DNA from: a virus
Length of the DNA: 38,147 nt
Reading direction: 5' to 3' (one strand)
Virus record (IMG/VR): IMGVR_UViG_2651869533_000065
Coordinates: 1-38,147 of that record
In this document: in pieces, positions 6,527 to 38,147 of the stretch
How the letters are laid out: each line of letters starts with the position of its first letter
Position numbering within the stretch: position 1 is the stretch's first letter
The notes under the pieces: generated by a model
What the model saw: the letters and a program-made list of their open reading frames with translations, nothing else
What the model was told of the DNA's origin: nothing
The model's database searches: none
Position numbers and translations under genes: made by a program

Positions 6527-7471
6527 CTATCGTAGCGTACAACGCATGTTGGTGATCCATAAATCATTCAATATGCGAGGAACTTCGGCGAAAACATAGC
6601 CAATTGTTACATTCTGAAATAAAGGGTCAGAAAATACAGGAGGTCTATAAAGAAATCTTGCCGAATAATTATCCTGTTCGACGCAAGCTAGAGCTTCCAT
6701 ACCCTGAACAAAAACGTTATACACGTCATTGCCTAAAGCAGATGCGTTTGGAGACACGCTCGCAACTGAACTAAGCATGAATCTTACATTATTTACGTTC
6801 CCCCATTCTGAGCGAAGAACCCGATTGTCATTCGGATAGTTCCACTTAGAGATGAAGCCGTTAATGTTGTTCAAGTCCTTAGACAGCTTGGTGTGACCCA
6901 ATGCTAGATATGCATCGCGTACAGGGCCTGTTCCAAACTTGTCTTCTCCGCCGATAGTGTCGAGGATCATCCATGCATCGTTGGTTAACAATGTAGAGGT
7001 GACTTCATCAATATCAGAAAGAGAAAGATCTGTTGGAAGGTCGCCGTTGTTTCCGCCAGTACAATTGTAGATAGAAGCTGTCGAAGCTAACATGTCTCTG
7101 GTCAATTGGTCTTCGGTCATACGGAGCGATAAGCCGAGTAGTTCAGCTGTTTCATTCAATACAGGGTCTTGGTTTTGCAAAGTTACCTGTTGGTTGATTG
7201 CAACATAGAGTCCGTAAAAACTCATGGTCGCATCGATATCAACACGGTTTAATGGCGTTGCTGGAGGGGTTGCGCCGCTGGGCCCAAGTGGGACTGGAGC
7301 AGTTGGCAATCTATCGTAGCGCGCCATACGTAACGTTCTTCCACCCTTAGCAGGCAAACGTTTTGCAAGAGCGCCTAGCTTCATGATCAGGTTAGGGGTT
7401 CTAACCGACAGAAGGACGTCATCAAAAGTTTGCTGTACAGGCGCAGGAAGCGTTGTAGGTGTAGTTATCAT
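6527..7471 (-). CDS. Major capsid protein, N4-gp56-like (HK97 fold), 314 aa
   Basis: SD AGGAG lies 7 nt before ATG 7471, so the track start at 7492 would include the SD. The pattern GGRTLRMARYDRL...PL..V.I.ATMSFYGLYVAI...DPVLNETAELLG...EDQLTRDML fits the N4-gp56 capsid family as I recall it. Sits downstream of the scaffold gene. Confidence 0.75.
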   Translation of the reverse strand: MITTPTTLPAPVQQTFDDVLLSVRTPNLIMKLGALAKRLPAKGGRTLRMARYDRLPTAPVPLGPSGATPPATPLNRVDIDATMSFYGLYVAINQQVTLQNQDPVLNETAELLGLSLRMTEDQLTRDMLASTASIYNCTGGNNGDLPTDLSLSDIDEVTSTLLTNDAWMILDTIGGEDKFGTGPVRDAYLALGHTKLSKDLNNINGFISKWNYPNDNRVLRSEWGNVNNVRFMLSSVASVSPNASALGNDVYNVFVQGMEALACVEQDNYSARFLYRPPVFSDPLFQNVTIGYVFAEVPRILNDLWITNMRCTLR

Positions 7472-7535
7472 ACACACACTCCTAAAGTACAAACGTATAT
7501 AGATTAAACAGATTGTATTTTGCCCTTATGCCAAC

Positions 7536-7555
7536 TTTGCAATGGCCGTTGCAAA
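7536..7555 (-). promoter_or_regulatory. Perfect hairpin or palindrome in the capsid leader
   Basis: TTTGCAA-TGGCCG-TTGCAAA: 7-bp stem, 6-nt loop, about 65 nt upstream of the capsid ATG. Confidence 0.5.
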
Positions 7556-7580
7556 ATTACCTTAGGGGCGATGTATGAAA

Positions 7581-7670
7581 GTGGCGAGCTTCCGTAACGC
7601 CGAATTTGTGAGTGGCGAATTCACGTAACGCCGAATTTTGTGAGTAGCGAAGTCACGTAACGCTGAGCAC
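7581..7670 (-). repeat. Three head-to-tail imperfect 31-32-bp repeats in the scaffold-capsid spacer
   Basis: Copies are 7581..7611, 7612..7643 and 7644..7670: GTGGCGA-N5-CGTAACGCCGAATTT(T)GTGA, with the third copy diverging at its end. Each unit can fold GGCG-11 nt-CGCC. Confidence 0.9.
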
Positions 7671-7700
7671 AGTATAGAAAAACTTTTGAGCAAAACGCAA
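7671..7700 (-). promoter_or_regulatory. Putative sigma70-type promoter for the capsid transcript
   Basis: The minus strand reads TTGCGT-18 nt-TATACT, immediately after the terminator U tract. The predicted start falls inside repeat 3. Confidence 0.4.
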
Positions 7701-7705
7701 GACGC

Positions 7706-7743
7706 AAAAAAAGGGCTAAGCGGAACAACTAACCGCTTAACCC
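7706..7743 (-). terminator. Rho-independent terminator after the scaffold gene
   Basis: The minus strand reads GGGTTAAGCGG-TTAGTTGTT-CCGCTTAGCCC followed by TTTTTTT. It is preceded by a second hairpin, TTTGGG-6 nt-CCCAAA, at 7753..7770. Confidence 0.8.
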
Positions 7744-7776
7744 CCCTGAAGATTTGGGAATCGACCCAAATGCAAA

Positions 7777-8517
7777 TTAAGATTTGTACATCTTAGCCTG
7801 TTCTACCTGACGACGCAATTGATCCTTGCGATCCTCACTTAAGATACGACGATCATAGTCACCAACACGAGTCAAAGGAGTCTCGCTCGATTGAGGAGAA
7901 ACGTTGGCAGAAGAACGAGGTTTGCCCTTATTGTCTTGAACGCGCTTATCTAATTCTTGATACTGGTTCTCAAGAACACCACTTGTCTTGATCAGTTCAT
8001 ACCCAATATCGCCACGATCAAAGATATCATTGCTAGCATAGATAGCTTTATAGAGGGCAGGTTTTTGAGTAGCGAGTCTTTCGAGGTTCTCTTTAGTTAC
8101 TACGCTATCAAAATCGCTGTACTTGGACCTAAGTCTCATCTCTGCTTGGGTAAGAGCATTCTGTTGATGATACTCTTCAAACTGCTTCTTAGTGTTCTTT
8201 ATCTCTTGCTTGAGAGTTTTGACATACTTTTTGAGGTCTTTGCCTTCAACATACGCATCATCGCCAAGATTGAAGTCGAAATCATCAGGATCAGCGATCT
8301 GCATTTTGGTGGTTTGCTGTTGCGACATGTTCATTTGGACCATGCGCTCTAGTTCCTGAGCTCTGCGTTCAGCATTTTCAGCACGTTCTCTTAAAACGCG
8401 ATGGCTTGCCTCTTTTTGAGCCTCTTTTTGTGCATCTATCTCTTGCTGAGATGGTTGCGCTGGTGATTGCTCAGATGGAAAGGTGTGCTCAGCTGCTGGA
8501 TTCAATTCATCAAACAT
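7777..8517 (-). CDS. Putative scaffolding protein, 246 aa
   Basis: Acidic, Gln/Glu/Lys-rich, coiled-coil-type sequence directly upstream of the capsid gene. SD GAGGAG precedes ATG 8517. Confidence 0.65.
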   Translation of the reverse strand: MFDELNPAAEHTFPSEQSPAQPSQQEIDAQKEAQKEASHRVLRERAENAERRAQELERMVQMNMSQQQTTKMQIADPDDFDFNLGDDAYVEGKDLKKYVKTLKQEIKNTKKQFEEYHQQNALTQAEMRLRSKYSDFDSVVTKENLERLATQKPALYKAIYASNDIFDRGDIGYELIKTSGVLENQYQELDKRVQDNKGKPRSSANVSPQSSETPLTRVGDYDRRILSEDRKDQLRRQVEQAKMYKS

Positions 8518-9026
8518 GCATTCTCCTCATTACTTATCTTTATTAACGCGTCTATCTTCTCGCCGTTCTCTTTTTTGACCCATTCTAGCAAAGATCCGTT
8601 CTCCATTAAGATGACGAACTTGGCTATATCGGCAGTTTCTTTGTCCGTTAGATACTTAACCTGATTGTTGATGATATGGTAGTAGAGAATAGAGTCTGGA
8701 ATAGACCACATAAACTCTAACTGATCAGAGAAAGACTTGTATTTCCACACTGACTGCTTGTAAACAGGTGTTGGACATGATTTACGGGCTAAGGTGATCA
8801 CTTTAGGCTGTCTCAGAACGCGATCGACGGTAGTGATCAGAACAACATAGAAGTCTTTTCCTCGGTAACCATCTTGGTTCTTGGCCTTTGCAGCAGTATC
8901 GACAAGTTTCTGAGCTATATCAGGTTCCATCGAGCGACGATACTCAATAATATCGTCCTCAAAATCAAGGCCTAAGGCATCGTGCTCACGAATTACCTGG
9001 CCCGCTAATTTTTTATTTGGGTCCAT
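8502..9026 (-). CDS. Hypothetical late protein, 174 aa
   Basis: ORF with SD AAAGGAG before ATG 9026. Overlaps the scaffold start by 16 nt. It is the first gene after the cargo island. Confidence 0.75.
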   Translation of the reverse strand: MDPNKKLAGQVIREHDALGLDFEDDIIEYRRSMEPDIAQKLVDTAAKAKNQDGYRGKDFYVVLITTVDRVLRQPKVITLARKSCPTPVYKQSVWKYKSFSDQLEFMWSIPDSILYYHIINNQVKYLTDKETADIAKFVILMENGSLLEWVKKENGEKIDALIKISNEENACLMN

Positions 9027-9056
9027 TACTACTCCTTTGATTCAGTGGATAGTGTA

Positions 9057-9071
9057 CGTATAGCACAAAAA
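9057..9071 (-). promoter_or_regulatory. Extended -10 promoter restarting late transcription
   Basis: The minus strand reads TTTTTGTGCTATACG (TGn + TATAC). The 14-mer TTTTTGTGCTATAC recurs exactly at 35701..35714 (+). Confidence 0.5.
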
Positions 9072-9167
9072 GATTAACCATGTCGAACTACTAGCATTTT
9101 TTGTAGATATAGGTAGCCTTTCATGCACAAATGAATTAACCTATGGGGCAGGAAAAGCGATGTATAG

Positions 9168-10121
9168 ATGAGGCATTTTCAAGAAAATAATCTGTATAGA
9201 AATCTCGTATTGTATATTTTAGTGTCCTTTGATATACTATATGGGATTTCTATACGTGAACAAAACCAAGAAAAGAGCCCAGTGGAAGTAACTGCAATTC
9301 TCGTAAAAGCATTCACAAAGAATATAGATGCCGGAAACCCTGCCGGAGTGATCCTCGATGCTGACTGGCTTTCAGATGTACAAATGCAGTCAATTGCTTC
9401 GCGTTTGGGATTTTCTGAGACGGTGTTTGTATCTGAATCAAGACAAGCAGAATGCAGACTTAGATACTTCACTCCTATATGCGAAGTAGATGCTTGTGCG
9501 CATGCCACCATAGCTGCAATGCATGTTTTGGAATCAGACAGGGTCGATTCTTATGAAAACAACAAAGGAACACACTCAATAAAACGAGAGTGGGATGGGA
9601 ATATTGTTCTAACCCAAGAAAAACCAACCATTGGCGACAAAATTTCTAAGAGAGCAATAGCCAAACTATTGGGCATATCCCACAAGAAGATTCCTCTCGA
9701 ATGGGACTGTAGGGTCGTATCTACAGGTGTACCGAAACTTATAGTTCCTATTGCCGATCTAAAGACACTTCATGAGATCAAACCAGACTTAGAGGCAATT
9801 AAGAGTTTTTGTGCATATTACCCTTGCAAGGGTGTGTATCTTTTTACCACAGAAACTATAGATGAACACTCAGATGCTCACACAAGACAATTCAATCCTT
9901 TGTATGGTATCGATGAAGATCCTGTAACAGGTGTAGCTGCCGGTGCCTTAGGAGCCTATTTTGCTTATATGGGAATGATAGAACGCTATTACGACATAGA
10001 GCAGGGTGACTGTATGGGCAAACCAGGAAGAGTTCGTGTATACACAGACGGATGGACAAATATGCCTGTTAAGATATCAGGCCAAGCAGTTATATATGGT
10101 GAGCGTGTCCTCACGGTATAA
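9168..10121 (+). CDS. PhzF-family isomerase-like protein (DAP-epimerase fold)
   Basis: Motifs DAGNPAGV, GFSETVFV (catalytic Glu context) and RYFTP..EVDACAHATIAA match the PhzF family. The start is ambiguous: ATG 9168 adds a hydrophobic 38-aa extension, while in-frame GTG 9282 gives a canonical N-terminus. Confidence 0.85.
   Translation: MRHFQENNLYRNLVLYILVSFDILYGISIREQNQEKSPVEVTAILVKAFTKNIDAGNPAGVILDADWLSDVQMQSIASRLGFSETVFVSESRQAECRLRYFTPICEVDACAHATIAAMHVLESDRVDSYENNKGTHSIKREWDGNIVLTQEKPTIGDKISKRAIAKLLGISHKKIPLEWDCRVVSTGVPKLIVPIADLKTLHEIKPDLEAIKSFCAYYPCKGVYLFTTETIDEHSDAHTRQFNPLYGIDEDPVTGVAAGALGAYFAYMGMIERYYDIEQGDCMGKPGRVRVYTDGWTNMPVKISGQAVIYGERVLTV
9210..9238 (+). promoter_or_regulatory. Putative promoter of the PhzF-like gene
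   Basis: TTGTAT-17 nt-TATACT. It lies inside the ATG-9168 extension of the ORF, which favours the GTG start at 9282. Confidence 0.45.
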
Positions 10122-10150
10122 AAAAAGGGCCCCCAGTTTCCCAGGAGCCC
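10120..10150 (-). terminator. Rho-independent terminator of the oxygenase gene
   Basis: The minus strand reads GGGCUCC-10 nt-GGGGCCC (one G.U pair) followed by U7. The stem is weaker on the plus strand, which has no U tract. Confidence 0.75.
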
Positions 10151-10170
10151 CCAACCAATAAGTAAGCAGT

Positions 10171-11229
10171 CTATTTATATTCGTTCAACATGAAGTAGCA
10201 GCGTTGCAACCAGCGCCAGTTATTCTTGTCGATTTTGAATGCATCACGAGCATGCATAACTTCCCAGTTGTTAAACAGAAGAAGATCGCCTTTGCTTAAA
10301 GTAACGCTGATTTTGCTAGAGTCGAAGAACTCTTTTGATTTCAGTAAGTCAGTTAGATAGGTCACTATTTCTTTAGCTCTATCATTAGCACCTTCTACAC
10401 GATCCAGATTAGCGTTAAAGCGATATATTCGCTCGCCATCGATCTGTTCTAGAATAGGTAGGGTAATGAGTCTTCTTTCTTTTCCTTCAAAGCTAGGACC
10501 AGATTTCATGATGAATTGGGAGATCTTCATCTCTTCAATCATGTCTTCTTTACCGTCAGCTTTGATAGCAGCAAGAATGTCATCTAAGAACAACATGCTT
10601 GTGCTTACCTTTGGATCGCCACGCAGGCAAAGCAAAGAGAAGAACTTAAGTGGTTTAGGTGAGTACACATTTTCTGTGTGTGCGAAGAAGGGGATTTCAG
10701 ATCCGTTGCTTGATGCTACAGATTTTGACTTGGCATCATCGCGGGGGATGATTTGGTTGATATATGTGCCATCTTTCTCGTTCTCATCAAAGTCAGGATA
10801 TGAATCCAACATTGAGCAAAGGCCGAGCAGTGTGCATTCGCTTGCGTAACCCTTACCATTCACTTCACCAGTTACTGGAGGTCTAATTCCATTCTGGGGT
10901 GTCTGGGGTATTACGTTGTCGATTGGCATATTATGTACAACAAGAGCTGTTGGCACATTGGTATGACGCATATTGTAGATGATGTCTTTTAGGTCTTGTG
11001 GGAGAACAGCTTCTAAAGCCGCTTTAGCTGCGACTCTGTAGTGGTCCCAATTTTTGTAAGCATCTTTGGTTTCAACGTTTATCAGTTCGTTGAAGTCCTT
11101 TGATACTTGTTCGTCCAAGGTATAGTCGAGTACGGTTTGATTATGAATCTTCGTGATCTTAATGTGATCCCCACCCAAAAGAGTGATAGGTAAAATCAGC
11201 GCAGCAAGAGAGAGTCCCTTATGGTTCAT
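10171..11229 (-). CDS. Clavaminate-synthase-like Fe(II)/2-oxoglutarate amino-acid beta-hydroxylase (VioC/AsnO-type), 352 aa
   Basis: FFAHTENVYSPKPLKFFSLLCLRGDPKVST carries the HxE facial-triad segment, and LLFNNWEVMHARDAF...RWLQR carries the distal His/Arg. Both match the arginine/asparagine hydroxylase subfamily as remembered. Hydrophobic N-terminus MNHKGLSLAALILPITLLGG. SD AAGGA. Confidence 0.8.
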   Translation of the reverse strand: MNHKGLSLAALILPITLLGGDHIKITKIHNQTVLDYTLDEQVSKDFNELINVETKDAYKNWDHYRVAAKAALEAVLPQDLKDIIYNMRHTNVPTALVVHNMPIDNVIPQTPQNGIRPPVTGEVNGKGYASECTLLGLCSMLDSYPDFDENEKDGTYINQIIPRDDAKSKSVASSNGSEIPFFAHTENVYSPKPLKFFSLLCLRGDPKVSTSMLFLDDILAAIKADGKEDMIEEMKISQFIMKSGPSFEGKERRLITLPILEQIDGERIYRFNANLDRVEGANDRAKEIVTYLTDLLKSKEFFDSSKISVTLSKGDLLLFNNWEVMHARDAFKIDKNNWRWLQRCYFMLNEYK

Positions 11230-11366
11230 AATGTGTCCTTATGAATATATGGTGTGAAATATGATACTTACTTTGAGTTTCGAAGCACGTGAGATGGATA
11301 GGCATAAAAGCATCTAGAATACAGTGTTTGCCTAGTTGGGTTCCTTTTGCCCTTGACTCATAATTC

Positions 11367-11394
11367 AATTTATGGAAATAAAAAACGTTGTCAA
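11367..11394 (-). promoter_or_regulatory. Putative promoter of the oxygenase gene
   Basis: The minus strand reads TTGACA-16 nt-TAAATT. This implies a leader of about 130 nt. Confidence 0.45.
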
Positions 11395-11401
11395 GAGCCC
11401 A

Positions 11402-11429
11402 TTGCAATTAATGTAAATTCACATAGAAT
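11402..11429 (+). promoter_or_regulatory. Putative promoter, divergent partner of 11367..11394
   Basis: TTGCAA-16 nt-TAGAAT. Its -35 box is 7 bp from the -35 box of the opposite promoter. Confidence 0.45.
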
Positions 11430-11529
11430 AATACACTCAAAACTAGCTCTGAATCGCATATCAAGATATAGTATGACTGTTCATGAAATTGTGTGTGTTT
11501 TGAGCGTAACTCCTTGAACACATATCCTA

Positions 11530-11566
11530 CCCTCAGGCGACTCACTCTCTCCTGGGGGTTTTTATT
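11530..11566 (+). terminator. Intrinsic terminator inside a leader (attenuator or sRNA 3' end)
   Basis: CCCTCAGG-13 nt-CCTGGGGG (8 bp, one G.U pair) followed by TTTTTATT. It ends 12 nt before SD AAGAGGA and ATG 11579. Confidence 0.65.
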
Positions 11567-11578
11567 AAGAGGATCATA

Positions 11579-11791
11579 ATGCATCCAGAACTTTATTTTA
11601 AAATAACCAGTGAGTATCTAGAGATAGGCAGAGGAGACAATAGTTGCAAACTCTATTACGCTATTACCTTAGCTGAACGTGACCCAGTCCTTAATGAGAT
11701 AGCTAATCAATTAGATGTGAAGATGATTGATCTTATTAAGCTGCTATATGAATTCTACAGATATTTTCCAGGTCCAGGCAGGACTTGTTAA
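11579..11791 (+). CDS. Hypothetical protein, 70 aa
   Basis: ORF with SD AAGAGGA 6 nt upstream. No recognisable motif. Ends at the shared hairpin. Confidence 0.5.
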   Translation: MHPELYFKITSEYLEIGRGDNSCKLYYAITLAERDPVLNEIANQLDVKMIDLIKLLYEFYRYFPGPGRTC

Positions 11792-11799
11792 CAGAAAAT

Positions 11800-11828
11800 C
11801 CCCTGGCCAGATTAACTCCAACCAGGGG
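11800..11828. terminator. Hairpin shared by convergent genes
   Basis: CCCCTGG-15 nt-CCAGGGG, between the stops at 11791 (+) and 11853 (-). Confidence 0.5.
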
Positions 11829-11852
11829 AAACCAAGAAAGAGAGGATAGCAA

Positions 11853-12089
11853 CTATTTTTTCTTTTTAGGGATCTTTGCGCCAGACTTTCTAGCTTCACT
11901 TAAAGCGATAGCTATAGCCTGTTTAGGATTCTCTACCTCTGGACCATGTTTCGAGCCAGAGTGCAACTTGCCTTCTTTAAACTCGTGCATAACTTTCTCA
12001 ACCTTCTTTTTACCTTTTGAAGGCTTCTTTTTCTTTGCAGGAGCTTTAACTTTAGGCATCTTTTTAACATGTTTTTTCTTATGTTCCAT
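11853..12089 (-). CDS. Lys-rich protein with DUF6496-like C-terminal domain, 78 aa
   Basis: VMHEFKEGKLHSGSKHGPEVENPKQAIAIALSEARKSG matches the DUF6496 signature as I recall it. The N- and C-termini are poly-Lys. Its SD (TAAGGA) overlaps the stop codon of the peptidase gene. Confidence 0.75.
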   Translation of the reverse strand: MEHKKKHVKKMPKVKAPAKKKKPSKGKKKVEKVMHEFKEGKLHSGSKHGPEVENPKQAIAIALSEARKSGAKIPKKKK

Positions 12090-12098
12090 TATTAATCC

Positions 12099-12941
12099 TT
12101 AATTGTGTTTCCATGAGACAGAAAACGATTTACCATCAACTGATAGAGGCGAAGCAACTGCTTTCACAACGCCTTGGGGTGATACCATATCCATATTCTC
12201 ATTAACCCATGAGGTATTATTGATAGAGCCCAATATGTTGGTCATCACGCAAGAGCAGTTGAATATTTGAGCATTGCCGAAGTTAGAGAGAGGTAGAGTG
12301 GTATTTAACCATGGAGCCTCAAGAATCCACTCCGCGCATACCCTGTCCAACTCCACGGTCGAAAAATAGGGAATCACCGAGTAAACACGCTTGGTGTCAT
12401 TAGTGATCATCATGATAAATAGACCGGTACCAACAGGCAATATGTTTGGTAGTGAGACATAGGTCACTGAAGCACTGATGTTATCACCAGGCTCAACAGG
12501 GAACCCAACAAGCATGTTACTGCCAGCAGGGAACATCTCCCACCATGCATAATGTATTTGTTGACCGTTCAACCAATCATGCTCTGTGCCTAGCTGTTCA
12601 ACTGTTGAGCTACCAGAGCCATCAATACCTACCCATATAGAGCAGTTAGTGTTGACCGATGATCGCTGGACAGTAGGAACTACCCAAGATCCTGACACCT
12701 TTGTAACGGCATGGAGCGTTGGTTTAGCTAAGCTACCCATCTTTGCTACATAACCGCACCAGTTATCACTCGATGAGGCGTTCATAATGCGCTGGTTGCC
12801 TGGCAAGCAAGGACATGGTCGTTTGCTAGAAGGGCGGTCACACTTCTTGGACTTACATACTAAATGTTTATAGCCATGCTGGTGATCAGCGACTAATGTG
12901 GTACCAATTGTTAGTACCAATAAGGCTAATTTTAAGATCAT
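12099..12941 (-). CDS. Secreted glutamic peptidase, family G1 (eqolisin, Pfam Peptidase_A4-like), 280 aa
   Basis: Motifs in order: NWCGYV, SIWVGIDG, VEQLGTE (catalytic Gln context), YAWWEMFP, AEWILEAP (catalytic Glu context). Start moved to ATG 12941 (SD AAGGAGAAGT), giving the signal-like N-terminus MILKLALLVLTIGTTLVA. Confidence 0.8.
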   Translation of the reverse strand: MILKLALLVLTIGTTLVADHQHGYKHLVCKSKKCDRPSSKRPCPCLPGNQRIMNASSSDNWCGYVAKMGSLAKPTLHAVTKVSGSWVVPTVQRSSVNTNCSIWVGIDGSGSSTVEQLGTEHDWLNGQQIHYAWWEMFPAGSNMLVGFPVEPGDNISASVTYVSLPNILPVGTGLFIMMITNDTKRVYSVIPYFSTVELDRVCAEWILEAPWLNTTLPLSNFGNAQIFNCSCVMTNILGSINNTSWVNENMDMVSPQGVVKAVASPLSVDGKSFSVSWKHN

Positions 12942-12951
12942 ACTTCTCCTT

Positions 12952-12977
12952 GAAAAGGGGAGCTTTTTACACTCCCC
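12952..12977 (-). terminator. Hairpin between the 49-aa ORF and the peptidase gene
   Basis: The minus strand reads GGGGAG-9 nt-CTCCCC followed by TTTT. It could instead be a 5' stabilising stem of the peptidase mRNA. Confidence 0.4.
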
Positions 12978-12983
12978 CATATT

Positions 12984-13133
12984 TTACTGAGCTGAAGACG
13001 AATCACGGAACCATTCTCTGATCTTTTCATCAGTTGGTCTCTTTTGATTATCCTGACGCTTGTCCTTTGGAGTCTTCAGGATTCGATAGGCTATTTTCAT
13101 AGCTTTGCTATTGGGCCTGATTTGTCCTGGCAT
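12984..13133 (-). CDS. Small basic protein, 49 aa (below the ORF-track cutoff)
   Basis: Hand translation gives MPGQIRPNSKAMKIAYRILKTPKDKRQDNQKRPTDEKIREWFRDSSSAQ. SD AAGGAG lies 6 nt before ATG 13133 and overlaps the stop of the upstream gene. Confidence 0.5.
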   Translation of the reverse strand: MPGQIRPNSKAMKIAYRILKTPKDKRQDNQKRPTDEKIREWFRDSSSAQ

Positions 13134-13142
13134 AAGATCTCC

Positions 13143-13493
13143 TTAGTACTTCTTAGGCTTCATCTCGCGACCAAGGTCCTTGTAGTCTTCATGCATTTGC
13201 TTTTCAGCGCCATAGAATAGATCTTCAACATAACCCATGTTGTAGTTATTAGCTTTTGGCCAGTACTCATCTATCACTTGGCGTGGGAGCAGTGCAGGAG
13301 CTGACATATCCTCTTTGATCATAGCGCCATCGCGTGCCATCATCTTGCGGGATTCTTTACGTCCTGAGTATGATTCACGAGACTCTAAACCTTTTACAGT
13401 GTTAGGAACTGGATCGCTATTATCCATGCGACGTGTCATAGCCTCCTGTTTGTTGCTACGACGTCTTTCTTCTTCGTAATATCTTTTAGCCAT
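13143..13493 (-). CDS. Hypothetical charged protein, 116 aa
   Basis: ORF with SD AAGGAG before ATG 13493, immediately downstream of the portal gene. Confidence 0.75.
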   Translation of the reverse strand: MAKRYYEEERRRSNKQEAMTRRMDNSDPVPNTVKGLESRESYSGRKESRKMMARDGAMIKEDMSAPALLPRQVIDEYWPKANNYNMGYVEDLFYGAEKQMHEDYKDLGREMKPKKY

Positions 13494-13541
13494 GGTGGCT
13501 CCTTCGTTAGAAAATGCGCTGTTACACGCAAGGGTTCGCCT

Positions 13542-15587
13542 CTATCTAACCAATCCAGAACCATTCTGATTGGGTCGAGGATTTCTTTCAGTAGTGAGTC
13601 GTGGTGACTCTTCAACTTCCATCATTCTATGGAGGGATACTATCTTATGAAGTTGATCGATGTCTATGTTCTGTATCTCTTTTATTGCTTTAGCAAAATT
13701 GAGCAATGCCATCTGATCGTCTTTGATCGCTGCTGCACGGCGTTCTTCAGCCAATGCCTTATTTTCATCGATACGACTGAAGCGCTCTGCACCAAGACCT
13801 TGGTCAGCAACTGAACGAGCTTGAGCCAATTGCGTACGCGCTTGTTGCTCTTGGATCTGAGCCTGCATTTGCATTTGTTGCATTTGTTGCGCTTGTTGCT
13901 GTTGTTGCTGCATTTGTTGCAGGATCTTGTCCTTGTCTTGGATGGTAGCTGATTCAATAAGCGCAGAATCTGGAATAGGCACACCCATCTCTCTAAGCTG
14001 CATAAGCTGAGCAAACTGCATCTGCTTTTGAGATTCAGTGTTGAAGCCCATCTCTACCATGCAATGATACTTACCGAATGCCTTGTTATAGAACAATGGA
14101 GCTGGCTCTTCACCTTCAAGTAGATTCTTGACCTTGCCTGGCGTGTAGTTAGCCTGCATTATCTTCATGACGAGTTCGCCAAGAAGGTTCTGAGAGTAGT
14201 CTAGACGATCAAATATAGGCTGTAGCGTCGTTAAACCAGCGCCTTGACGTAATGCACTCAGAATGCCGGCTTTGTCGTCTAGGGCACTTCCCATAAGCTC
14301 TTCGTTGACACCAGACACAAGGTTCATCTCTTTTGAGAAGGTATCTTGGAGTTCGAAGAAGTATTGCGGGATGTTAGGTGGTGCAATCTGTACGATATCA
14401 GTCATCGCCGCTTCTTCTTTAAGCGGTATAATTCTTCCTTGTCCAGTTTGAAATAAATGTTTAACGTCGACTGGAGCATTCTCTTTAAATATCCAACCTG
14501 AATTTACTACGCTTTCTGCGGCGTCCGCTGACAAGATCACGCGACGGTTAAAAAGTATTTGCGGGTCCCGAAGCGATCGACAGATGCCTTGTATGCGCGA
14601 ATAGAAGTAAGGCATCATGTTATTGTAATAACCGAGAACGGGAACGAACGGATAGCAATCTATGTTCATTGGGTTTGGTCCGTCGTAGAAGACTTTATCC
14701 TGAATCATGATCGCCAAGCGTACGGTAGGAATGTCCTGCTCTATCATGGTTATTTCAGGATAGTGAGCCAAGAACGTATCGATATCTACATTATCCTGAT
14801 TGGTGATTTCCCACGTTTCGCCCGTGTTCTTATCTACAAGCAGTTTCTGTTTTCTATAATCCCTATAATAGTACTCATCGTAGGCCAGTCTATTCTGTTG
14901 AGTTTGGCCGTAACTTTCAGGCATGTATTGAAAACGACCATCTCGCCCTGTCCCTGTAGGGTTTCCTGGAAGTTCCATGATCTCGTCATACCTGTCTGGC
15001 ATCAATGCAGCTGCTGCACTATGCGATAGGTAGGATCGTCTCCAAACGAATGAACAGTCTGATAGGTCTGGCTTACGAAAGTATGGATCTATGAAGAAGC
15101 TATTGTAAGACAGGTTATCGATCTTAATATCACCTGAAACAGGGTCATTGCGATAGTCTAGATAGGCATGAAGAAGGTTCATGCCGGTTATACAAGCACC
15201 TTGATGGAAGGCTTCGGAGATGGTTTCGTAGACACCTTCACGCTTATATATACCCAGAATTGCTTTGGTGAGCTGATCAGAGGTCTTTTGGTCACCATTT
15301 TCTAGAGGAATGACGACAGTGGACTTGCGGTTACGGCGCTGATAGCCCGAAACCATGTTACACAGAGGACGAGTACGGTTGAAATACCACGATCCTCTAT
15401 TATTGTTGGGTAGCGATTGGTTTAACTCGGCCATTAAAGAGGTATCGCCTGCTTCAAGACGAGTATCGATAGTTGCTTCGGTCCAATAAACTTGCCAAAT
15501 AGCTTGGTTGGCGGTGTAGTCTGAGTCTATCTTCTTTTTTATAGCCCCATAACTATCATTTAAGTATTCAGGCTGCCGCATTAACAT
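13542..15587 (-). CDS. Portal protein, 681 aa, with C-terminal poly-Gln tract
   Basis: It has the expected size and lies downstream of the terminase. SD GAGGAG lies 7 nt before ATG 15587, and the track's first five codons (MRRKN) are that SD. Family call rests on position and size, not a motif. Confidence 0.75.
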   Translation of the reverse strand: MLMRQPEYLNDSYGAIKKKIDSDYTANQAIWQVYWTEATIDTRLEAGDTSLMAELNQSLPNNNRGSWYFNRTRPLCNMVSGYQRRNRKSTVVIPLENGDQKTSDQLTKAILGIYKREGVYETISEAFHQGACITGMNLLHAYLDYRNDPVSGDIKIDNLSYNSFFIDPYFRKPDLSDCSFVWRRSYLSHSAAAALMPDRYDEIMELPGNPTGTGRDGRFQYMPESYGQTQQNRLAYDEYYYRDYRKQKLLVDKNTGETWEITNQDNVDIDTFLAHYPEITMIEQDIPTVRLAIMIQDKVFYDGPNPMNIDCYPFVPVLGYYNNMMPYFYSRIQGICRSLRDPQILFNRRVILSADAAESVVNSGWIFKENAPVDVKHLFQTGQGRIIPLKEEAAMTDIVQIAPPNIPQYFFELQDTFSKEMNLVSGVNEELMGSALDDKAGILSALRQGAGLTTLQPIFDRLDYSQNLLGELVMKIMQANYTPGKVKNLLEGEEPAPLFYNKAFGKYHCMVEMGFNTESQKQMQFAQLMQLREMGVPIPDSALIESATIQDKDKILQQMQQQQQQAQQMQQMQMQAQIQEQQARTQLAQARSVADQGLGAERFSRIDENKALAEERRAAAIKDDQMALLNFAKAIKEIQNIDIDQLHKIVSLHRMMEVEESPRLTTERNPRPNQNGSGLVR

Positions 15588-15772
15588 ATTTTTTCTCCTC
15601 AAATTACTATGTATTGCCTAATAGCGCAGAACATAGCATTTTTTGTGCCCTTTCTTCTATAAGCTCTTAATGAGGATCACGATAGCTATAATTATGAGAA
15701 TGTCGGTTGAGTTCATAGAGCACCTATATTGAAGTCTCTATCTGGATCTAGCTTTACAAACATCATTAACTC

Positions 15773-16252: not shown

Positions 16253-17623
16253 TTATCTTCTATCGTATCGCGGATCATCTCTGAAAAAGCGTGGCAGATC
16301 CGCTTGATTACTGCCATACAATGCTTGTGCCTTTGCCCTATCGAAATCTTCTGGGCCTCTGCCCTTCTTGGTACGATGTATTGCCATGCACATATACCTC
16401 AAAGCATCAGCGTAATGGTTTGCCCATGACTTAACAGGCTTAGGAAGATACATCTGCTTGGCTTCATCCCACTCTTTACGGTAGTTCTCTAATGCGTCTA
16501 TTAAAGATCTACACTTCTCTTGATCTATCCAGAATTTATTAAAATGGGTCCAAACGTTTTCAATACCATCAATGACACCAACTTGATCAACAAGGGTAAA
16601 ATCAAGGCCCAATTGGCGCGCTTTCTCATAACGCGTGACTGCTCCTCCCCCCCACTCTCTCACCTTAATATCATGTGGAGCAAAATGCTTAGCATAGATA
16701 TAGGGTTTATCTTTCACACACTTAACATAATAATCTAATCCCAAGTTATTATTAGACAAACAGTCTATTATCCGGATCACAGACCCGTCTCCAACGACAT
16801 TAAAGAAGATTATCGTCGTGGCGTCATTGACACCGATATCCCAGGCCGTATAGGTAACGAGTCCTGGTTCCCATGGCACATGACCGATCTGGCCTCTAAG
16901 TTTCAATGCATCGAGATGAGCACCATAGAAGCTTCCAGAAATCCCGCGATCCCAACTACACTCATACTCCTGGAGGTATAATCCCTCATCCATTTGAGAT
17001 CGTTCGTTATCCAACACATCGGGCGGAATATGCCCTATCTCGCTAGCCTTATGAACGAATATCTTCCATTCGGGTAGCTCCTGAGCAATCTTCCATAGTT
17101 GCCACATATGGTTCTTGCCTCGAGGCGTTCCAACTATTGCACACCATCCTCCGTTTGCCGCCAAAATTGGCCGTATGAACGAGAAAATATCTGGTGGCAT
17201 GAGACTAAACTCACTCAGTATTACTGCGTAAGGATTGGTTCCTACAAGCGAGCTGTCGTAGGTATCGCCTCCCAAAATTTGTAGGATTGATCCGTTGTGA
17301 AAAGTAACCTTCATTTCAGATGAGTTAACGCCTTTAACAAGCTGTGAAGGCAGGTAATCTAAGAACTTAGTCCCATCAATTGCAATCGCATCGAAAATAC
17401 ATCGACGTCCTTGCCCGTAAGTCGGGAGCACATAGAACACTAAGCATGTACGTTTGATGCATTGCCTTATCGCTAAGTTCCAGAAGAGAATATCTTTACC
17501 GGCTCGCCGCGAAGCTATATACAGAACACGCTTAGATCTGCCCTCTTCTATCGTGTCCCAGATCTCTTCTTGGTACCAACGCAGTGAGAACTTATCAAGC
17601 TCTACTTGTACTTCTACATTCAT
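16253..17623 (-). CDS. terL: Terminase large subunit, 456 aa
   Basis: Walker A-like ASRRAGKD, Walker B-like YAVILSEF, then VGTPRGKN and a C-terminal nuclease-type region (WDIGVNDATT). Adjacent to the portal gene. Confidence 0.9.
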   Translation of the reverse strand: MNVEVQVELDKFSLRWYQEEIWDTIEEGRSKRVLYIASRRAGKDILFWNLAIRQCIKRTCLVFYVLPTYGQGRRCIFDAIAIDGTKFLDYLPSQLVKGVNSSEMKVTFHNGSILQILGGDTYDSSLVGTNPYAVILSEFSLMPPDIFSFIRPILAANGGWCAIVGTPRGKNHMWQLWKIAQELPEWKIFVHKASEIGHIPPDVLDNERSQMDEGLYLQEYECSWDRGISGSFYGAHLDALKLRGQIGHVPWEPGLVTYTAWDIGVNDATTIIFFNVVGDGSVIRIIDCLSNNNLGLDYYVKCVKDKPYIYAKHFAPHDIKVREWGGGAVTRYEKARQLGLDFTLVDQVGVIDGIENVWTHFNKFWIDQEKCRSLIDALENYRKEWDEAKQMYLPKPVKSWANHYADALRYMCMAIHRTKKGRGPEDFDRAKAQALYGSNQADLPRFFRDDPRYDRR

Positions 17624-23786: not shown

Positions 23787-24407
23787 CTATTTCCTGTTCT
23801 TTGCTATATATGCTTTAACACCAGCAAACTTTGAGCGCTTGAGGTGCGATAGATCTTCTACCTCATTGAACCCTTTTATGGCCGTAAACAGTGTTCCTGC
23901 ATTAGCACAGGCCTTTAAGTCAGCAGTAAGTATTGCGAGTTGCTCTTGTGTTATACATGGTTCTTCTTGGGCATCTCTTTGTTCGATATACTTCCGCTCT
24001 GACTCTCCATCATCATCTTCGGTAGGTATGGCGCATAGAGATAGAACTGAATACTCTTTCATATAGGTATTAGCTTTACCCTTTTCCTGGTTGCCAGGCT
24101 TTTCACTTTCAAGGATGCGACAATCTTCAAGGTACTGGCCAGACAGCGTATGAACCAAACGAGTATGAAGGCATTCGACCCTATCAACAGGCCTAGCAAA
24201 GTGCCAGATGATAATGTTGTTCTTCGCCAATGCTCCTTCAACCGCATGATAGATATCCTCTATCTTTGCATATTTACCAAACTGGTTGTTCTTACCGCTC
24301 ATTCCTGTAGCGATGAACTCTTGCTTAGCCAATAAAAAGGCAGCCGCAAGAGCTCTTATATCGTCAGACATTGAAGCGCTGTTACTCTTTATTGTCTGGT
24401 GTTCCAT
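23787..24407 (-). CDS. erf: ERF-family single-strand annealing protein, 206 aa
   Basis: GKYAKIEDIYHAVEGALAKNNIII...HTLSGQYL...GKANTYMKEYSVLSLCAIPTEDDDG fits the ERF core (KYA.L.DI ... H.SG ... TY.RRY.L..L.GI..EDDDG). Confidence 0.75.
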   Translation of the reverse strand: MEHQTIKSNSASMSDDIRALAAAFLLAKQEFIATGMSGKNNQFGKYAKIEDIYHAVEGALAKNNIIIWHFARPVDRVECLHTRLVHTLSGQYLEDCRILESEKPGNQEKGKANTYMKEYSVLSLCAIPTEDDDGESERKYIEQRDAQEEPCITQEQLAILTADLKACANAGTLFTAIKGFNEVEDLSHLKRSKFAGVKAYIAKNRK

Positions 24408-26920: not shown

Positions 26921-27383
26921 TTTTACCTACAACCAAGAATATTTATTAACGAAGCTCTTCTCTTTAGATATTTATGCCAATCTCTTTTGGGGATTTTGGT
27001 TTGCTGTTTTTCTCGGAATAGCCGTCTATGTTGTTATAAAAATAATACGCAACAAAAATCTTCAAGAGAAAGAGGAACGGCAAGAAAAGCAGAACTATCT
27101 CAAGCAACAAGAACAAGAGAAAGTAGAGCGCTTCAAACAACAAGAAAAGGATGAAGTATTTTCTCAATTCCATGAAATATGTCGCCTTATGTATGAAGAT
27201 CTCCACGTATTCAAGCGTCCACAGAAAATGGTTAGACAGATGTATTACCATGAACTGAAAGACTTGATACAGAAGATGTCTAGAATGGAAGCATACATGC
27301 GCAAAAACTATAAACATTTGATTCCAGACTACGAATTCTATCGAGACAAATTTATAGAGGAAGAGAAAAATGGAATTGAGTAA
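26889..27383 (+). CDS. Membrane coiled-coil protein, 164 aa
   Basis: TM segment LFWGFWFAVFLGIAVYVVIKII followed by a Gln/Glu/Lys-rich helix. Overlaps the upstream gene by 32 nt. Confidence 0.6.
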   Translation: MRPLLEPGNYNFTYNQEYLLTKLFSLDIYANLFWGFWFAVFLGIAVYVVIKIIRNKNLQEKEERQEKQNYLKQQEQEKVERFKQQEKDEVFSQFHEICRLMYEDLHVFKRPQKMVRQMYYHELKDLIQKMSRMEAYMRKNYKHLIPDYEFYRDKFIEEEKNGIE

Positions 27384-28047
27384 TATTTACCGATCGTCGG
27401 AGATCAACCAGATCATGGGAGCACTGTCGAAGGCGCAGGGAAGCTATAAGCCCCTTGTGGCCAACCAGGATGCCACAGGAGGAAGGTTTGCTAATCTTCA
27501 AGCAATCTTATTAGCCGTACGAGAATCGTTGGCTACAAACGGTCTAGGCTTCTTCCAATTCATAGAACTGCTTGATGAAGGATCGGGTGCTGCACTTTTA
27601 AAGACAACCATCGGTCATGAGTCGGGTCAATACATAACTTCCTGTGCTCGTGTGGTTGCTGGCAAGACCGAACGCCAGACAGGCAATATCTACGAAATCC
27701 ACAAACGTTTACATGCTTTGATGCTCTTGGGCATAGCACCTTCTGACAATGACCCTATTGCCTTTGATGATAATGGTGAAATACTAGCCGAACAACATCT
27801 GATATCTCAGTTGCGCAAGCCAGACTCTCCAGCAAGAGAAGAGATAGATAGAACCGACGTTATAAATAAGACTCAGTATCAGGAACTTTTGATTGAGCTT
27901 GATGGGTTTGAGAAGATCGCCAAAGACATTATGGACTCTCATGGCATTACTACGTTAGCTGATTTACCAGCCGGTGAGTACCACAGAGCCCGTGCTAAAA
28001 TATTGAGAATCAAGAAAATTGAATCTGAGTATCAAAGAAAGAATTAA
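27370..28047 (+). CDS. Second ERF-like single-strand annealing protein, 225 aa
   Basis: GRFANLQAILLAVRESLATNGLGFF...HESGQYI...IYEIHKRLHALMLLGIAPSDND parallels the ERF core. Its C-terminal part has the same layout as 23787..24407. Confidence 0.55.
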   Translation: MELSNIYRSSEINQIMGALSKAQGSYKPLVANQDATGGRFANLQAILLAVRESLATNGLGFFQFIELLDEGSGAALLKTTIGHESGQYITSCARVVAGKTERQTGNIYEIHKRLHALMLLGIAPSDNDPIAFDDNGEILAEQHLISQLRKPDSPAREEIDRTDVINKTQYQELLIELDGFEKIAKDIMDSHGITTLADLPAGEYHRARAKILRIKKIESEYQRKN

Positions 28048-38089: not shown

Positions 38090-38147
38090 CGTCTCTCCTG
38101 TTTAAAATTTTACATATTCCAAGGTAACCTGCGAGTCGGTAAACGTA
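38047..38147. repeat. Terminal direct repeat, right copy
   Basis: Identical to 1..101. Confidence 0.95.

Follow-up and report, generated by a model that had tools for sequence, protein, structure and literature searches.

The region between the portal and scaffold genes (positions 9027-13142) of the viral DNA analyzed here, a stretch of 38,147 nucleotides hereafter called the window, is best explained as a moron-type hotspot that harbors host-derived genes, the exported products of which probably act at the interface between a bacterium and a eukaryote; we assign this explanation as a whole a probability of about 60%. The original prediction depicted the region as one cargo island of four self-contained transcription units. 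Judging from comparative maps, the cargo is not one island but fills two or three swap-in slots, which flank a conserved DUF6496 gene.

Head-gene backbone of the phage family

At about 38 kb, the window is a complete, podovirus-like genome that is closed by a 101-nt terminal direct repeat and belongs to a large, widespread family of uncultured phages. The cargo genes have bacterial chromosomal homologues, as would be expected had phage and bacterial DNA been joined in a chimeric assembly, but such an artefact is extremely improbable because of the terminal repeat and because an independent ENA assembly (L165) has the same gene order from p116 to the scaffold. Also, the composition of the window is homogeneous, and another relative, L081, shows an identical hydroxylase-PhzF arrangement with identical junctions.

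Comparative maps, obtained with tblastn on 80 IMG/VR loci and 5 others (about 85 related phage loci), yield the backbone order portal, p116, p49, slot A, DUF6496, terminator, slot B, p174, scaffold, slot C, capsid. The slots vary in length from 71 to 2866 nt (A), from 86 to 4907 nt (B) and from 188 to 3107 nt (C). Clustering of the ORFs from 52 loci gave 106 clusters, only 3 of which are core. The small backbone gene p116 (13143..13493, minus strand), located directly downstream of the portal, has tblastn matches in most of the 80 IMG/VR relatives, and its cluster c0 is found in 48 of the 52 loci. The adjacent p49 (12984..13133, minus strand) encodes 49 amino acids, falls into cluster c2 (30 of the clustered loci) and is 86-88% identical to its counterparts in L081 and L165; it lies within the 9027-13142 interval yet was missing from the gene list of the original prediction. 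The Lys-rich DUF6496 protein (11853..12089, minus strand; PF20106, 1.3e-16) is encoded between the portal and p174 in most relatives that extend that far, including those with a portal identity as low as about 50%. Finally, p174 (8502..9026, minus strand), which opens the scaffold and capsid transcription unit, has tblastn matches in most relatives and is always directly upstream of the scaffold gene in those. By these comparisons, DUF6496 and p49 are core genes of the family rather than cargo. Portal and scaffold, which had been expected to be contiguous, never are in this family: p116, p49, DUF6496 and p174 separate them in the smallest relatives as well.

The unit that runs from the portal to DUF6496 ends in an intrinsic terminator, T1 (11799..11829, minus strand; a 13-bp stem with 7 GC pairs, then TTTTCTGTT), located between the convergent DUF6496 and orf70 genes. 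A hairpin followed by a T-run (dG <= -8) is found after DUF6496 in 32 of 53 loci, including cargo-free ones, compared to 13 of 159 random controls, which marks this break as a natural operon boundary of the phage family by sequence criteria. Terminator-like sites in the region number 8 against 4.0 +/- 1.9 in shuffled sequences, about 2 standard deviations higher, whereas promoter-like hexamer pairs are not enriched (14 against 14.0 +/- 3.5); the promoters discussed below are consensus matches backed by conservation. The predicted restart of late transcription is needed before p174, and the element TGTGCTATAC (~9057-9071, minus strand), conserved in L165 and L051, is a putative promoter there.

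Slot A and the late operon

Slot A contains a gene for a G1 (eqolisin) glutamic peptidase with a signal-peptide-like N-terminus (12099..12980, minus strand; Pfam PF01828, Peptidase_A4, 8.9e-28). The AF2 model (pLDDT 83) is most similar to the PDB folds of scytalidoglutamic and aspergilloglutamic peptidases (TM 0.80-0.83, normalized by target length), and Q129 and E217 are invariant in an alignment of 30 homologues. The listed ORF begins 3 nt past the p49 stop; translation probably starts at M14 (position 12941), given that a fully identical protein, P0039, begins with MILKLALL, and from M14 the gap is about 40 nt. Whichever start is used, no terminator-like site is present in this gap on that strand; thus, the peptidase gene is not autonomous. 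It lies within the late operon, together with which it would be transcribed, and has no signals of its own, contrary to the proposed autonomous unit that also included the backbone gene DUF6496. The gene was detected in only 6 of the related loci, and no homologue was found in 50,697 GenBank phage records.

Slot B: hydroxylase, PhzF and a private insert

Slot B is located at the terminator/promoter boundary after DUF6496. Its first cargo gene (10171..11229, minus strand) encodes a clavaminate-synthase-like Fe(II)/2-oxoglutarate amino-acid hydroxylase (PF02668, TauD, 2e-11) with PDB sequence matches to KDO1, AsnO and VioC; the AF2 model (pLDDT 90) best fits KDO1, AsnO, CmnC and VioC (TM 0.72-0.80). 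Among 30 homologues, H184, H326, R339 and R343 are invariant and E186 is nearly so. With invariant catalytic residues and matching predicted folds, the hydroxylase and the peptidase both look active.

Signal peptides were called from hydrophobicity and alignment. Every one of the 30 hydroxylase homologues has a hydrophobic, signal-peptide-like N-terminus, as do 28 of the 30 peptidase homologues aligned (the other two begin later), whereas only 6 of the 52 ORFs in the window genome have hydrophobic N-termini. The hydrophobic N-terminus of PhzF is an artefact of ORF extension, because the most likely start is GTG 9282, where relatives have ATG and begin with MEVTA.. or MEIAV.., although the reading frame stays open back to ATG 9168.

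The hydroxylase gene is headed by a promoter and leader cassette (11230..11571, minus strand) that includes TTGACA-16-TAAATT (11394..11367), with the -35 hexamer invariant and the -10 hexamer nearly so in the window, L165, L051 and L001. The cassette precedes different, unrelated cargo in different phages, and an nhmmer search locates it upstream of the hydroxylase in L166 too, though in another slot. Such a mobile cassette would drive expression of a signal-peptide-bearing hydroxylase of the free-amino-acid type. Downstream, the strong terminator T3 (10125..10152, minus strand; a 12-bp stem with 7 GC pairs, then TTTTTTATACC) separates the hydroxylase from the convergent PhzF gene. Hence the claim of autonomous, moron-like units is borne out for the hydroxylase, with its conserved promoter-like element and own terminator, but not for the peptidase.

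The second cargo gene (9282..10121, plus strand) encodes a cytoplasmic PhzF/YddE-family isomerase (PF02567, PhzC-PhzF, 4.6e-57; TIGR00654, 4.4e-60) with a sequence match to PDB 3edn (5e-37). As the partner that converges on the hydroxylase, it has a promoter-like element of its own, TTGTAT-17-TATACT (9210-9238, plus strand; conserved in L165), located in a divergent control region (9027..9281) together with the putative p174 element. Hydroxylase and PhzF genes are adjacent in the window, L081, L084, L165, L166 and L170 and also in the bacterial loci L085 and L087; in L082, they are not adjacent. Because this conserved pair is found in bacterial chromosomes as well, it is more than an arbitrary combination made in phages. 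With an export signal on the hydroxylase but none on PhzF, the two do not obviously form a simple two-step pathway within a single compartment.

The remainder of slot B includes a 255-bp insert (11538-11792) that is unique to the window genome and lies between the terminators T2 and T1. In the closest relative, L165, the alignment breaks after 11537 and resumes at 11793, with only 38 nt in between, and no other locus compared covers 11601-11800. The insert contains orf70 (11579..11791, plus strand), a 70-aa ORF with a strong SD (AAGAGGA) and no match in Pfam, PHROG or NCBIfam; in L051, an unrelated 69-aa Cys-rich ORF has the same position and orientation. Private to this genome, orf70 follows a conserved small-RNA-like unit (11424..11564, plus strand) that consists of a TAGAAT -10 hexamer (11424-11429; part of TTGCAA-16-TAGAAT, 11402-11429), about 100 conserved nucleotides, the T2 hairpin (11530-11558) and a T-run. 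This unit aligns in 5 loci, with the T2 stem maintained through compensatory changes at 4 pairs, and matches no Rfam family.

Thus, the ORFs, strands, hexamers and four protein families of the original prediction were all recovered, the family assignments with additional backing from PDB entries in both sequence and fold. Genes in mixed orientation, two strong terminators, readable hexamers and the joint presence of peptidase, hydroxylase and PhzF in the window and two other genomes, L165 and the distant L170, are features expected of a single horizontally acquired 4-kb island, that is, a new auxiliary set of four autonomous morons expressed independently of the late program. However, the comparative maps largely refute this unlikely scenario: DUF6496 and p49 are backbone, the peptidase belongs to the late operon, and the supposedly obligate enzymes occur independently, the peptidase without hydroxylase and PhzF in L001, L051, L057 and L079, and the pair without the peptidase in L081 and L084. 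Furthermore, the pair can differ in slot and orientation in other phages; in L166 and L170, it occupies another slot. Nor is the composition foreign, as the tetranucleotides of the 9027-13142 interval are indistinguishable from those of the backbone. Identities to L165 are mosaic (p116 97%, peptidase 59%, DUF6496 97%, hydroxylase 97%, PhzF 72%, p174 78%). Between fixed backbone neighbors, the presence of the peptidase, hydroxylase, PhzF and orf70 genes differs among close relatives; these four are accessory genes, as predicted, and DUF6496 is not. Under the preferred hotspot explanation, three backbone positions would tolerate insertions (slot A before DUF6496, slot B after it, slot C between scaffold and capsid), and recombination with other phages and with host chromosomes would exchange the cargo.

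Origin, possible functions and known systems

We infer that the source of the cargo is the gene pool of obligate intracellular bacteria resembling Dependentiae (TM6). The peptidase homologues are chromosomal and are assigned to Candidatus Babeliales or Dependentiae; L167, a locus from a Dependentiae MAG, has a GC content of 0.432, compared to 0.429 in the phage; hydroxylase homologues reside in chromosomes of 1.37-1.42 Mb, beside ankyrin and LRR genes; and a family member maps close to one end of a 546-kb contig. Signal peptides are encoded by 44% of the CDS of Chromulinavorax, a Dependentiae isolate in which secreted proteases are viewed as effectors (PMC6561590). Against this host assignment, the bacterial loci with hydroxylase homologues have a GC content of 0.34 compared to 0.43 in the phage, one hydroxylase homologue is labelled Alphaproteobacteria, and the PhzF relatives at 45-50% identity come from CPR and DPANN organisms.

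The exported peptidase and hydroxylase might act on proteins or amino acids of the host cell and so supplement nutrient scavenging or host manipulation by the infected bacterium during phage replication or carriage. Carriage as a prophage is uncertain because no integrase was recognized among the ~30 ORFs tested. An Fe/2OG enzyme outside the bacterial cytoplasm would need 2OG, Fe(II) and O2 there, which counts against this explanation. Alternatively, the cargo could serve the phage itself, with a late exported peptidase for lysis, egress or receptor destruction, and with hydroxylase and PhzF modifying a phage or envelope component, for example, in superinfection exclusion. In every phage with the peptidase gene, this gene indeed runs in the same direction as the late genes p116, p49 and DUF6496 and is closely spaced with them, and the hydroxylase gene shares the late-gene orientation in L081, L165 and the window. 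Nevertheless, this possibility appears rather unlikely: in bacteria, the same peptidase and the same hydroxylase-PhzF pair are found as ordinary genes of the chromosome, away from any phage genes, and the cargo is absent from most family members. A small-molecule substrate can also be argued from R343 of the hydroxylase, which corresponds to the Arg that binds the free alpha-carboxylate in AsnO.

Variable phage hotspots often carry defence systems, and HNH, resolvase, NUDIX and RuvC genes are found in the same slots of related phages. Uncatalogued anti-phage defence or counter-defence cargo is nonetheless very unlikely, considering the metabolic and proteolytic families, the export signals, the standalone chromosomal homologues and the lack of a PADLOC match for any of the eight proteins, a result that also weighs against the phage-serving alternative. 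The combination indeed matches no known defence system and is essentially absent from the 50,697 GenBank phage records.

Each enzyme resembles a characterized family and departs from it. The peptidase shares the Pfam family, beta-sandwich fold, conserved Gln/Glu, pro-region and (predicted) secretion with the scytalidoglutamic and aspergilloglutamic peptidases (MEROPS G1, eqolisins) but, unlike these fungal enzymes, is bacterial or phage-encoded, only ~23% identical, located in a phage late operon and part of a clade with an 8-residue insertion. The hydroxylase has the fold of the free L-amino-acid beta/gamma-hydroxylases VioC, AsnO, KDO1 and GntD, with the H-x-E...H triad, the 2OG-binding Arg and the substrate-carboxylate Arg conserved. 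Yet it is only ~20% identical to them, scores far below every NCBIfam equivalog cut-off, carries a predicted N-terminal export signal, is paired with a PhzF-type isomerase and lacks a surrounding NRPS or antibiotic gene cluster. PhzF is a clear member of the PhzF/YddE isomerases (TIGR00654, 203.6 bits against a cut-off of 76.2) but falls below the YddE equivalog cut-off (197.8 against 386) and, rather than in a phenazine operon, is conserved beside an Fe/2OG hydroxylase.

The arrangement as a whole resembles lambdoid and HK97-like morons, additional genes that are inserted between backbone genes and bring along a promoter and a terminator, in that the cargo is present or absent between fixed neighbors at an operon boundary, and the hydroxylase is preceded by a conserved promoter-like element and followed by a strong terminator. 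In contrast to morons, the composition is not atypical, the peptidase lacks such signals, and promoter plus leader form a shared cassette before different cargo. Phages with comparable variable regions include the APSE phages of Hamiltonella, with a variable toxin cassette, and phage WO of Wolbachia, with a eukaryotic association module. Unlike these, the window lacks toxin, ankyrin and eukaryote-like domains, its cargo consisting of a protease and small-molecule enzymes; its slots lie inside the head-gene cluster, and its host is only inferred. What the window shares with APSE and WO is a variable region at a fixed position in a phage of a (here probable) host-associated intracellular bacterium, with cargo products that seem destined to act outside the bacterial cytoplasm.

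Gene order and cargo slots between the portal and the capsid

The two ends of the window share a 101-nt direct repeat (1-101 is identical to 38047-38147), and the window therefore is a complete genome of ~38.0 kb; a tRNA scan found no tRNA genes in it, and about 30 ORFs scanned against Pfam and PHROG yielded no integrase. The structural genes, encoded on the minus strand, include the terminase large subunit (16253-17623), a P22-type portal (13542-15602; PF16510, 2.6e-66), the 116-aa protein p116 (13143-13493), the scaffold (7777-8517; phrog_8865) and the major capsid protein (6527-7492; phrog_1357). The capsid protein shows 97-100% amino acid identity in relatives with a portal identity of ~83% and a scaffold identity of ~65%, suggestive either of unusually strong conservation or of a sweep or recombination event that affected this gene recently. 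Elsewhere in the genome, two Erf-like single-strand annealing proteins are encoded on opposite strands (23787-24407, minus; 27370-28047, plus), and two tail-fibre-like proteins (28652-31003 and 31013-33052, minus) contain C1q domains (PF00386), in one case together with a Peptidase_S74 intramolecular chaperone. The N-terminus of a 91-aa ORF (28311-28586, plus) located between a plus-strand gene block and the tail fibres resembles that of a signal peptide or lipoprotein (MKFLLFSLSLPFFCFCS...); the ORF may be another accessory gene with an exported product.

Because GenBank phages yielded no megablast match to 12.7 kb of the window and, in a tblastn search with the portal, only relatives of 21-23% identity, related loci were sought in IMG/VR and metagenome assemblies. 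At least 80 loci with portal identities from 48% to 91% were found in IMG/VR, and five more (L081, L084, L165, L166 and L170) came from other assemblies. At 90% identity, the terL cluster alone counts 86 members. When the window proteins were mapped onto all these loci, one invariant order emerged: portal, p116, p49, slot A, DUF6496, slot B, p174, scaffold, slot C, capsid, where the slots are the positions at which cargo genes occur. The length of the slot A interval, measured from the end of p49 or p116 to the start of DUF6496, is 71-2866 nt, that of slot B 86-4907 nt and that of slot C 188-3107 nt. The distance from the portal to p174 (8502-9026, minus) ranges from 0.8-1.1 kb in the most compact loci (L069, L070, L064 and L043) to 5.9 kb, with 4.5 kb in the window; in seven loci (L020, L022, L024, L026, L043, L069 and L070) DUF6496 and p174 are separated by 86-170 nt, compared to 2.8 kb in the window. 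In 52 loci, the ORFs between the portal and p174 fall into 106 clusters, only three of them core.

These maps change the picture of a single island (9027-13142) that splits otherwise contiguous portal and scaffold genes. The two genes are never contiguous in this family, and the cargo of the window occupies two independent slots that flank a core gene. The 78-aa Lys-rich product of that gene (11853-12089, minus) belongs to DUF6496 (1.3e-16, 61.1 bits against a cut-off of 24) and is present in most of the relatives that reach that far, down to ~50% portal identity; accordingly, DUF6496 is a backbone gene of the phage family rather than cargo. The 49-aa p49 (12984-13133, minus), located between p116 and the peptidase gene, is likewise conserved and present in 30 loci, whereas the peptidase, a 70-aa ORF (orf70) and the hydroxylase-PhzF pair are variable across the related phages. 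Gene-by-gene identity between the window and its closest relative, L165, swings from 97% to 59%, a sign of recombination at gene boundaries.

Cargo elsewhere in the family includes signal-peptide ORFans, DUF6321 and DUF5872 proteins, RuvC, HNH endonucleases, a resolvase, and a thymidylate-synthase-like protein together with a NUDIX protein. The most common slot B cargo in the relatives is cluster c3 (L008 13207-14205, minus, and 11 other loci), a protein of ~300 aa with a signal peptide and a long, hydrophobic, Gly/Ala/Thr/Val-rich C-terminal half without a Pfam match, which usually is accompanied by a ~67-aa membrane peptide encoded on the strand opposite to the late genes. The slots of relatives also are often filled by small Lys-rich proteins (DUF6321, DUF5872 and others) or duplicated DUF6496 genes (for example, L017 9221-9935, L062 12427-12777 and L084 8529-8768), which looks like a set of small basic proteins adjoining the portal. 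In many relatives the capsid gene is in two or three pieces or the gap between scaffold and capsid extends to 1-3 kb (L081 14246-15633, L166 7362-9177, L171 17169-18511; also L021, L024, L032 and L035), suggesting insertions of the intron or homing-endonuclease type and a third cargo slot near the capsid.

In tetranucleotide composition, neither the island nor any single cargo gene stands out from backbone windows of its own size: 0.25-0.64 of these controls have a distance as large as the observed one or larger. The cargo genes are therefore long-standing members of the phage gene pool and not recent imports.

An operon boundary and a portable promoter

A consensus scan of positions 7400-13700 yielded 14 promoter-like sites compared to 14.0 +/- 3.5 in shuffled sequences, so that hexamer matches alone carry no weight; the hexamers of the original prediction are all present at their places, and their value rests on conservation in relatives. 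Terminator-like sites number 8 versus 4.0 +/- 1.9 in shuffles. Two of them are strong: T1 (11799-11829), which follows DUF6496, and T3 (10125-10152), which lies between the convergent hydroxylase and PhzF genes. A hairpin with a T-run within 110 nt downstream of DUF6496 is found in 32 of 53 loci compared to 13 of 159 positions drawn at random from these loci, and this hairpin is kept even where p174 comes only 85-170 nt later. DUF6496 therefore ends a transcription unit, and p174, scaffold and capsid must start a new one. An element TGTGCTATAC ahead of p174 is conserved in the window, L165 and the IMG/VR locus L051; the alignment upstream of p174 covers a number of loci too small for defining a family-wide promoter. 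An insertion at such a terminator/promoter boundary would leave both flanking operons undisturbed, which would be a sufficient explanation for the slot B hotspot.

Upstream of the hydroxylase gene, 340 nt (11230-11571, minus) are conserved in L165, L051, L001 and L166. In this block, an invariant TTGACA -35 element is followed, after a 16-nt spacer, by TAAATT or TAAAGT as the -10 element. The gene downstream differs: hydroxylase in the window, L165 and L166, ThyA-like and NUDIX genes in L051, and a secreted ORFan in L001; in L166, the promoter element has moved together with the hydroxylase to another slot. This conservation ahead of differing cargo is the best support for the autonomous promoter that the original prediction assigned to the hydroxylase, which stands as a promoter predicted from sequence.

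On its plus strand, the same block contains a TAGAAT -10 element, ~100 conserved nucleotides and a terminator, T2 (11530-11558 plus a T-run), with a stem maintained by compensatory changes in five loci. The resulting unit of ~125 nt (11424-11564, plus) looks like a small-RNA gene divergent from the cargo promoter; an Rfam search of 8400-13600 yielded nothing meaningful, and this candidate has no family match. The gene orf70 (11579-11791, plus) follows. L165 aligns with the window up to 11537 and again from 11793 with 38 nt between, so that T1 and T2 are back to back in L165 and orf70 sits on a 255-bp insert private to the window. At the place of orf70, L051 has an unrelated 69-aa Cys-rich ORF in the same orientation. 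The ORF proposed as a self-contained unit is real and has a strong Shine-Dalgarno sequence (its product has no family match), but it lies downstream of T2 and its expression would need read-through.

Taken together, the four proposed transcription units resolve into a backbone gene with a late-operon passenger, a conserved two-gene module that has a portable promoter, and a small private insert. We consider this region to be an accessory-gene hotspot with several slots, located at a natural operon boundary, an architecture that is well supported (probability of about 0.8). If so, it provides a clean natural example of an internal operon boundary, terminator then promoter, that serves as a recombination-tolerant cargo slot and is headed by a portable promoter and leader cassette.

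The cargo enzymes

All four family assignments of the original prediction (PhzF, hydroxylase, G1 peptidase and DUF6496) are upheld by Pfam and, for the enzymes, by PDB or fold matches. The peptidase (12099-12980, minus) belongs to PF01828 (8.9e-28, 97.6 bits, cut-off 22.3), and its model (pLDDT 83) is closest to scytalidoglutamic and aspergilloglutamic peptidases (Foldseek 2ifr, 1s2b and 1y43, TM 0.79-0.83 normalised by target length). Neither Q129 (VEQLGTEHD) nor E217 (AEWI) varies among 30 homologues. The latter residue lines up with the fungal AEWIVE motif, whereas Q129 is offset by 2 residues from Q53 of scytalidoglutamic peptidase in the HMMER alignment, so that their equivalence needs a small indel. 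As listed, the ORF starts 3 nt past the p49 stop, and DUF6496 follows it after 9 nt, which places the peptidase, tightly packed between these two genes, in the late operon; a 100% identical protein, P0039, starts at M14 (MILKLALLVLTIGTTLVA/DHQ...), and this start would leave a p49-peptidase gap of ~40 nt, as in L165. In slot A, the peptidase is found in only six related loci (L001, L051, L057, L079, L165 and L170), and also on many further contigs of 35-38 kb. The peptidase indeed is accessory; the proposal that it forms a self-contained cargo unit with DUF6496 fails on both genes, the former being a late-operon passenger and the latter backbone. A strongly hydrophobic N-terminus is found in only 6 of the 52 window ORFs, the peptidase and the hydroxylase included.

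The hydroxylase (10171-11229, minus), a CAS-like Fe(II)/2OG enzyme of the VioC/AsnO/KDO type, belongs to PF02668 (2e-11) and has PDB sequence matches to the L-lysine 3-hydroxylase KDO1, AsnO and VioC. Its AlphaFold (AF2) model (pLDDT 90) has KDO1, AsnO, CmnC, VioC and OrfP as top Foldseek matches (E 6e-23 to 1e-17, TM 0.72-0.80). The H-x-D/E...H iron triad and the 2OG-binding arginine are present and align with the AsnO and KDO1 motifs: among 30 homologues, H184, H326 and R339 are invariant, E186 is conserved in at least 90%, and R343 is kept as well. By alignment to AsnO, R339 is the 2OG-binding arginine and R343 the one that holds the alpha-carboxylate of the substrate, and because of the latter match the substrate is likely to be a free amino acid. 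The scores fall far below all NCBIfam equivalog cut-offs (the best is GntD with 70.6 bits against 345; VioC, 43.8 against 418.6), and the specific substrate therefore cannot be named. A hydrophobic N-terminal segment is present in 30 of 30 homologues. A profile search of genome contigs yielded only three true relatives; matches in Pelagibacteraceae were set aside as distant TauD proteins.

The PhzF protein (9282-10121, plus) is assigned with confidence to PF02567 (4.6e-57, 194 bits, cut-off 27) and TIGR00654 (4.4e-60, 203.6 bits, cut-off 76.2), with 3edn and YddE as the nearest PDB entries; no phz genes (phzA-G) of a phenazine operon are present in the window or any related locus. Its promoter-like hexamer pair is weaker than that of the hydroxylase but is conserved in L165. 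Export through a hydrophobic N-terminus was considered for PhzF and rejected: the relatives start at an internal position with MEVTA or MEIAV, and the GTG (9282) of the window is replaced by ATG in L165 and for the proteins P0204 and P0205. PhzF thus appears to be without a signal peptide.

In the window and the related loci, the neighbour of PhzF is always the hydroxylase. The two genes are adjacent in the window, in L165 (hydroxylase 97% and PhzF 72% identical) and in L081 (70% and 48%, respectively), occur in tandem in L084 (portal 54% identical), and lie between scaffold and capsid in inverted orientation in the distant relatives L166 and L170. Pairs also are found on bacterial chromosomes, next to LRR genes (L085) and next to ankyrin genes in a 1.37-Mb chromosome (L087), whereas the bacterial locus L082 has a hydroxylase without a PhzF gene nearby. 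In L085 (8097-9422) and L082 (11255-12586), the hydroxylase is followed by a conserved 441-443-aa signal-peptide protein without a Pfam match, which may be a third pathway member. The hydroxylase and PhzF thus are functionally linked, yet they probably are in different compartments. Literature searches for PhzF-like proteins with a hydroxylase, for DUF6496, and for glutamic peptidases with bacteriophages found nothing relevant. If the reading of the cargo given below holds, an exported CAS-like hydroxylase and a PhzF-type isomerase form a conserved and so far uncharacterised pair in reduced-genome bacteria and their phages, with chemistry that is testable in vitro.

The putative host and comparison with known systems

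Dependentiae (TM6) are a widespread, almost uncultured phylum of obligate intracellular parasites of protists. The evidence that the phage has a host in this phylum is indirect but consistent in direction. Annotations describe the peptidase homologues of 38-50% identity as G1 endopeptidases from Candidatus Babeliales or Dependentiae; these homologues are chromosomal in MAGs of these groups, in ordinary settings: near T2SS genes in L163, in a 1.47-Mb chromosome in L164, and near ArgRS, EF-Ts and RRF in L167, which has a GC content of 0.432 versus 0.429 for the phage. Homologues of the hydroxylase are found in ~1.4 Mb chromosomes rich in ankyrin and LRR genes. Against a Dependentiae host, the bacterial loci with the hydroxylase have a GC content of 0.34, one hydroxylase homologue is labelled Alphaproteobacteria, and the PhzF relatives at 45-50% identity are CPR and DPANN proteins, which makes PhzF uninformative as a host marker. 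Neither tRNA nor att evidence links the phage to a host. We regard this host assignment as evenly balanced. A route to identifying the host is offered by L171 (ERZ25039540 contig_3191, 513618-534421 of 545982), 12-32 kb from the end of a 546-kb contig, which encodes terL, portal (55% identical), p116, peptidase (53%), DUF6496, p174, scaffold and a split capsid gene and is probably a prophage. The literature search found no description of a phage of this phylum. Signal peptides occur in 44% of the CDS of the Dependentiae isolate Chromulinavorax, and secreted proteases have been read as host-directed effectors (PMC6561590).

Most likely, the cargo provides auxiliary functions that derive from the host, an intracellular bacterium similar to Dependentiae, and are exported from it; any particular biochemical role can be proposed only tentatively. 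A more far-reaching and rather doubtful possibility is that this is a phage of Dependentiae in which the head-operon slots serve as an effector shuttle of Sec-exported enzymes among phages and host chromosomes, with action on the eukaryotic cell. The shuttled enzymes would include an acid G1 protease and a new amino-acid-modifying hydroxylase-PhzF pair. Should this hold, the window would provide a first handle on Dependentiae phages and their traffic in host-interaction enzymes; should it fail, the region would be a moron or AMG hotspot of the ordinary kind, unusual in its enzyme content. As in morons, the cargo lies between backbone genes that adjoin in related genomes. With regard to the own promoter and terminator expected of a moron, the genes differ: the hydroxylase has the conserved, promoter-like TTGACA-16-TAAATT upstream and a 12-bp terminator downstream, PhzF has its weaker hexamer pair, and the peptidase has neither. 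Unlike in morons, the nucleotide composition of the cargo is not distinct from that of the surrounding genome.

As originally proposed, the set does not correspond to a known defence system: PADLOC-DB matched 0 families for 8 proteins at E <= 0.01. The enzymes are scarce among GenBank phages: the G1 peptidase is absent, TauD is represented by one distant protein, and PhzF-like genes of 30-35% identity occur in 17 records. Although its enzyme repertoire is not that of phage WO or APSE, the window would resemble these phages, if the effector-shuttle reading is true, in a three-level interaction of virus, bacterium and protist.
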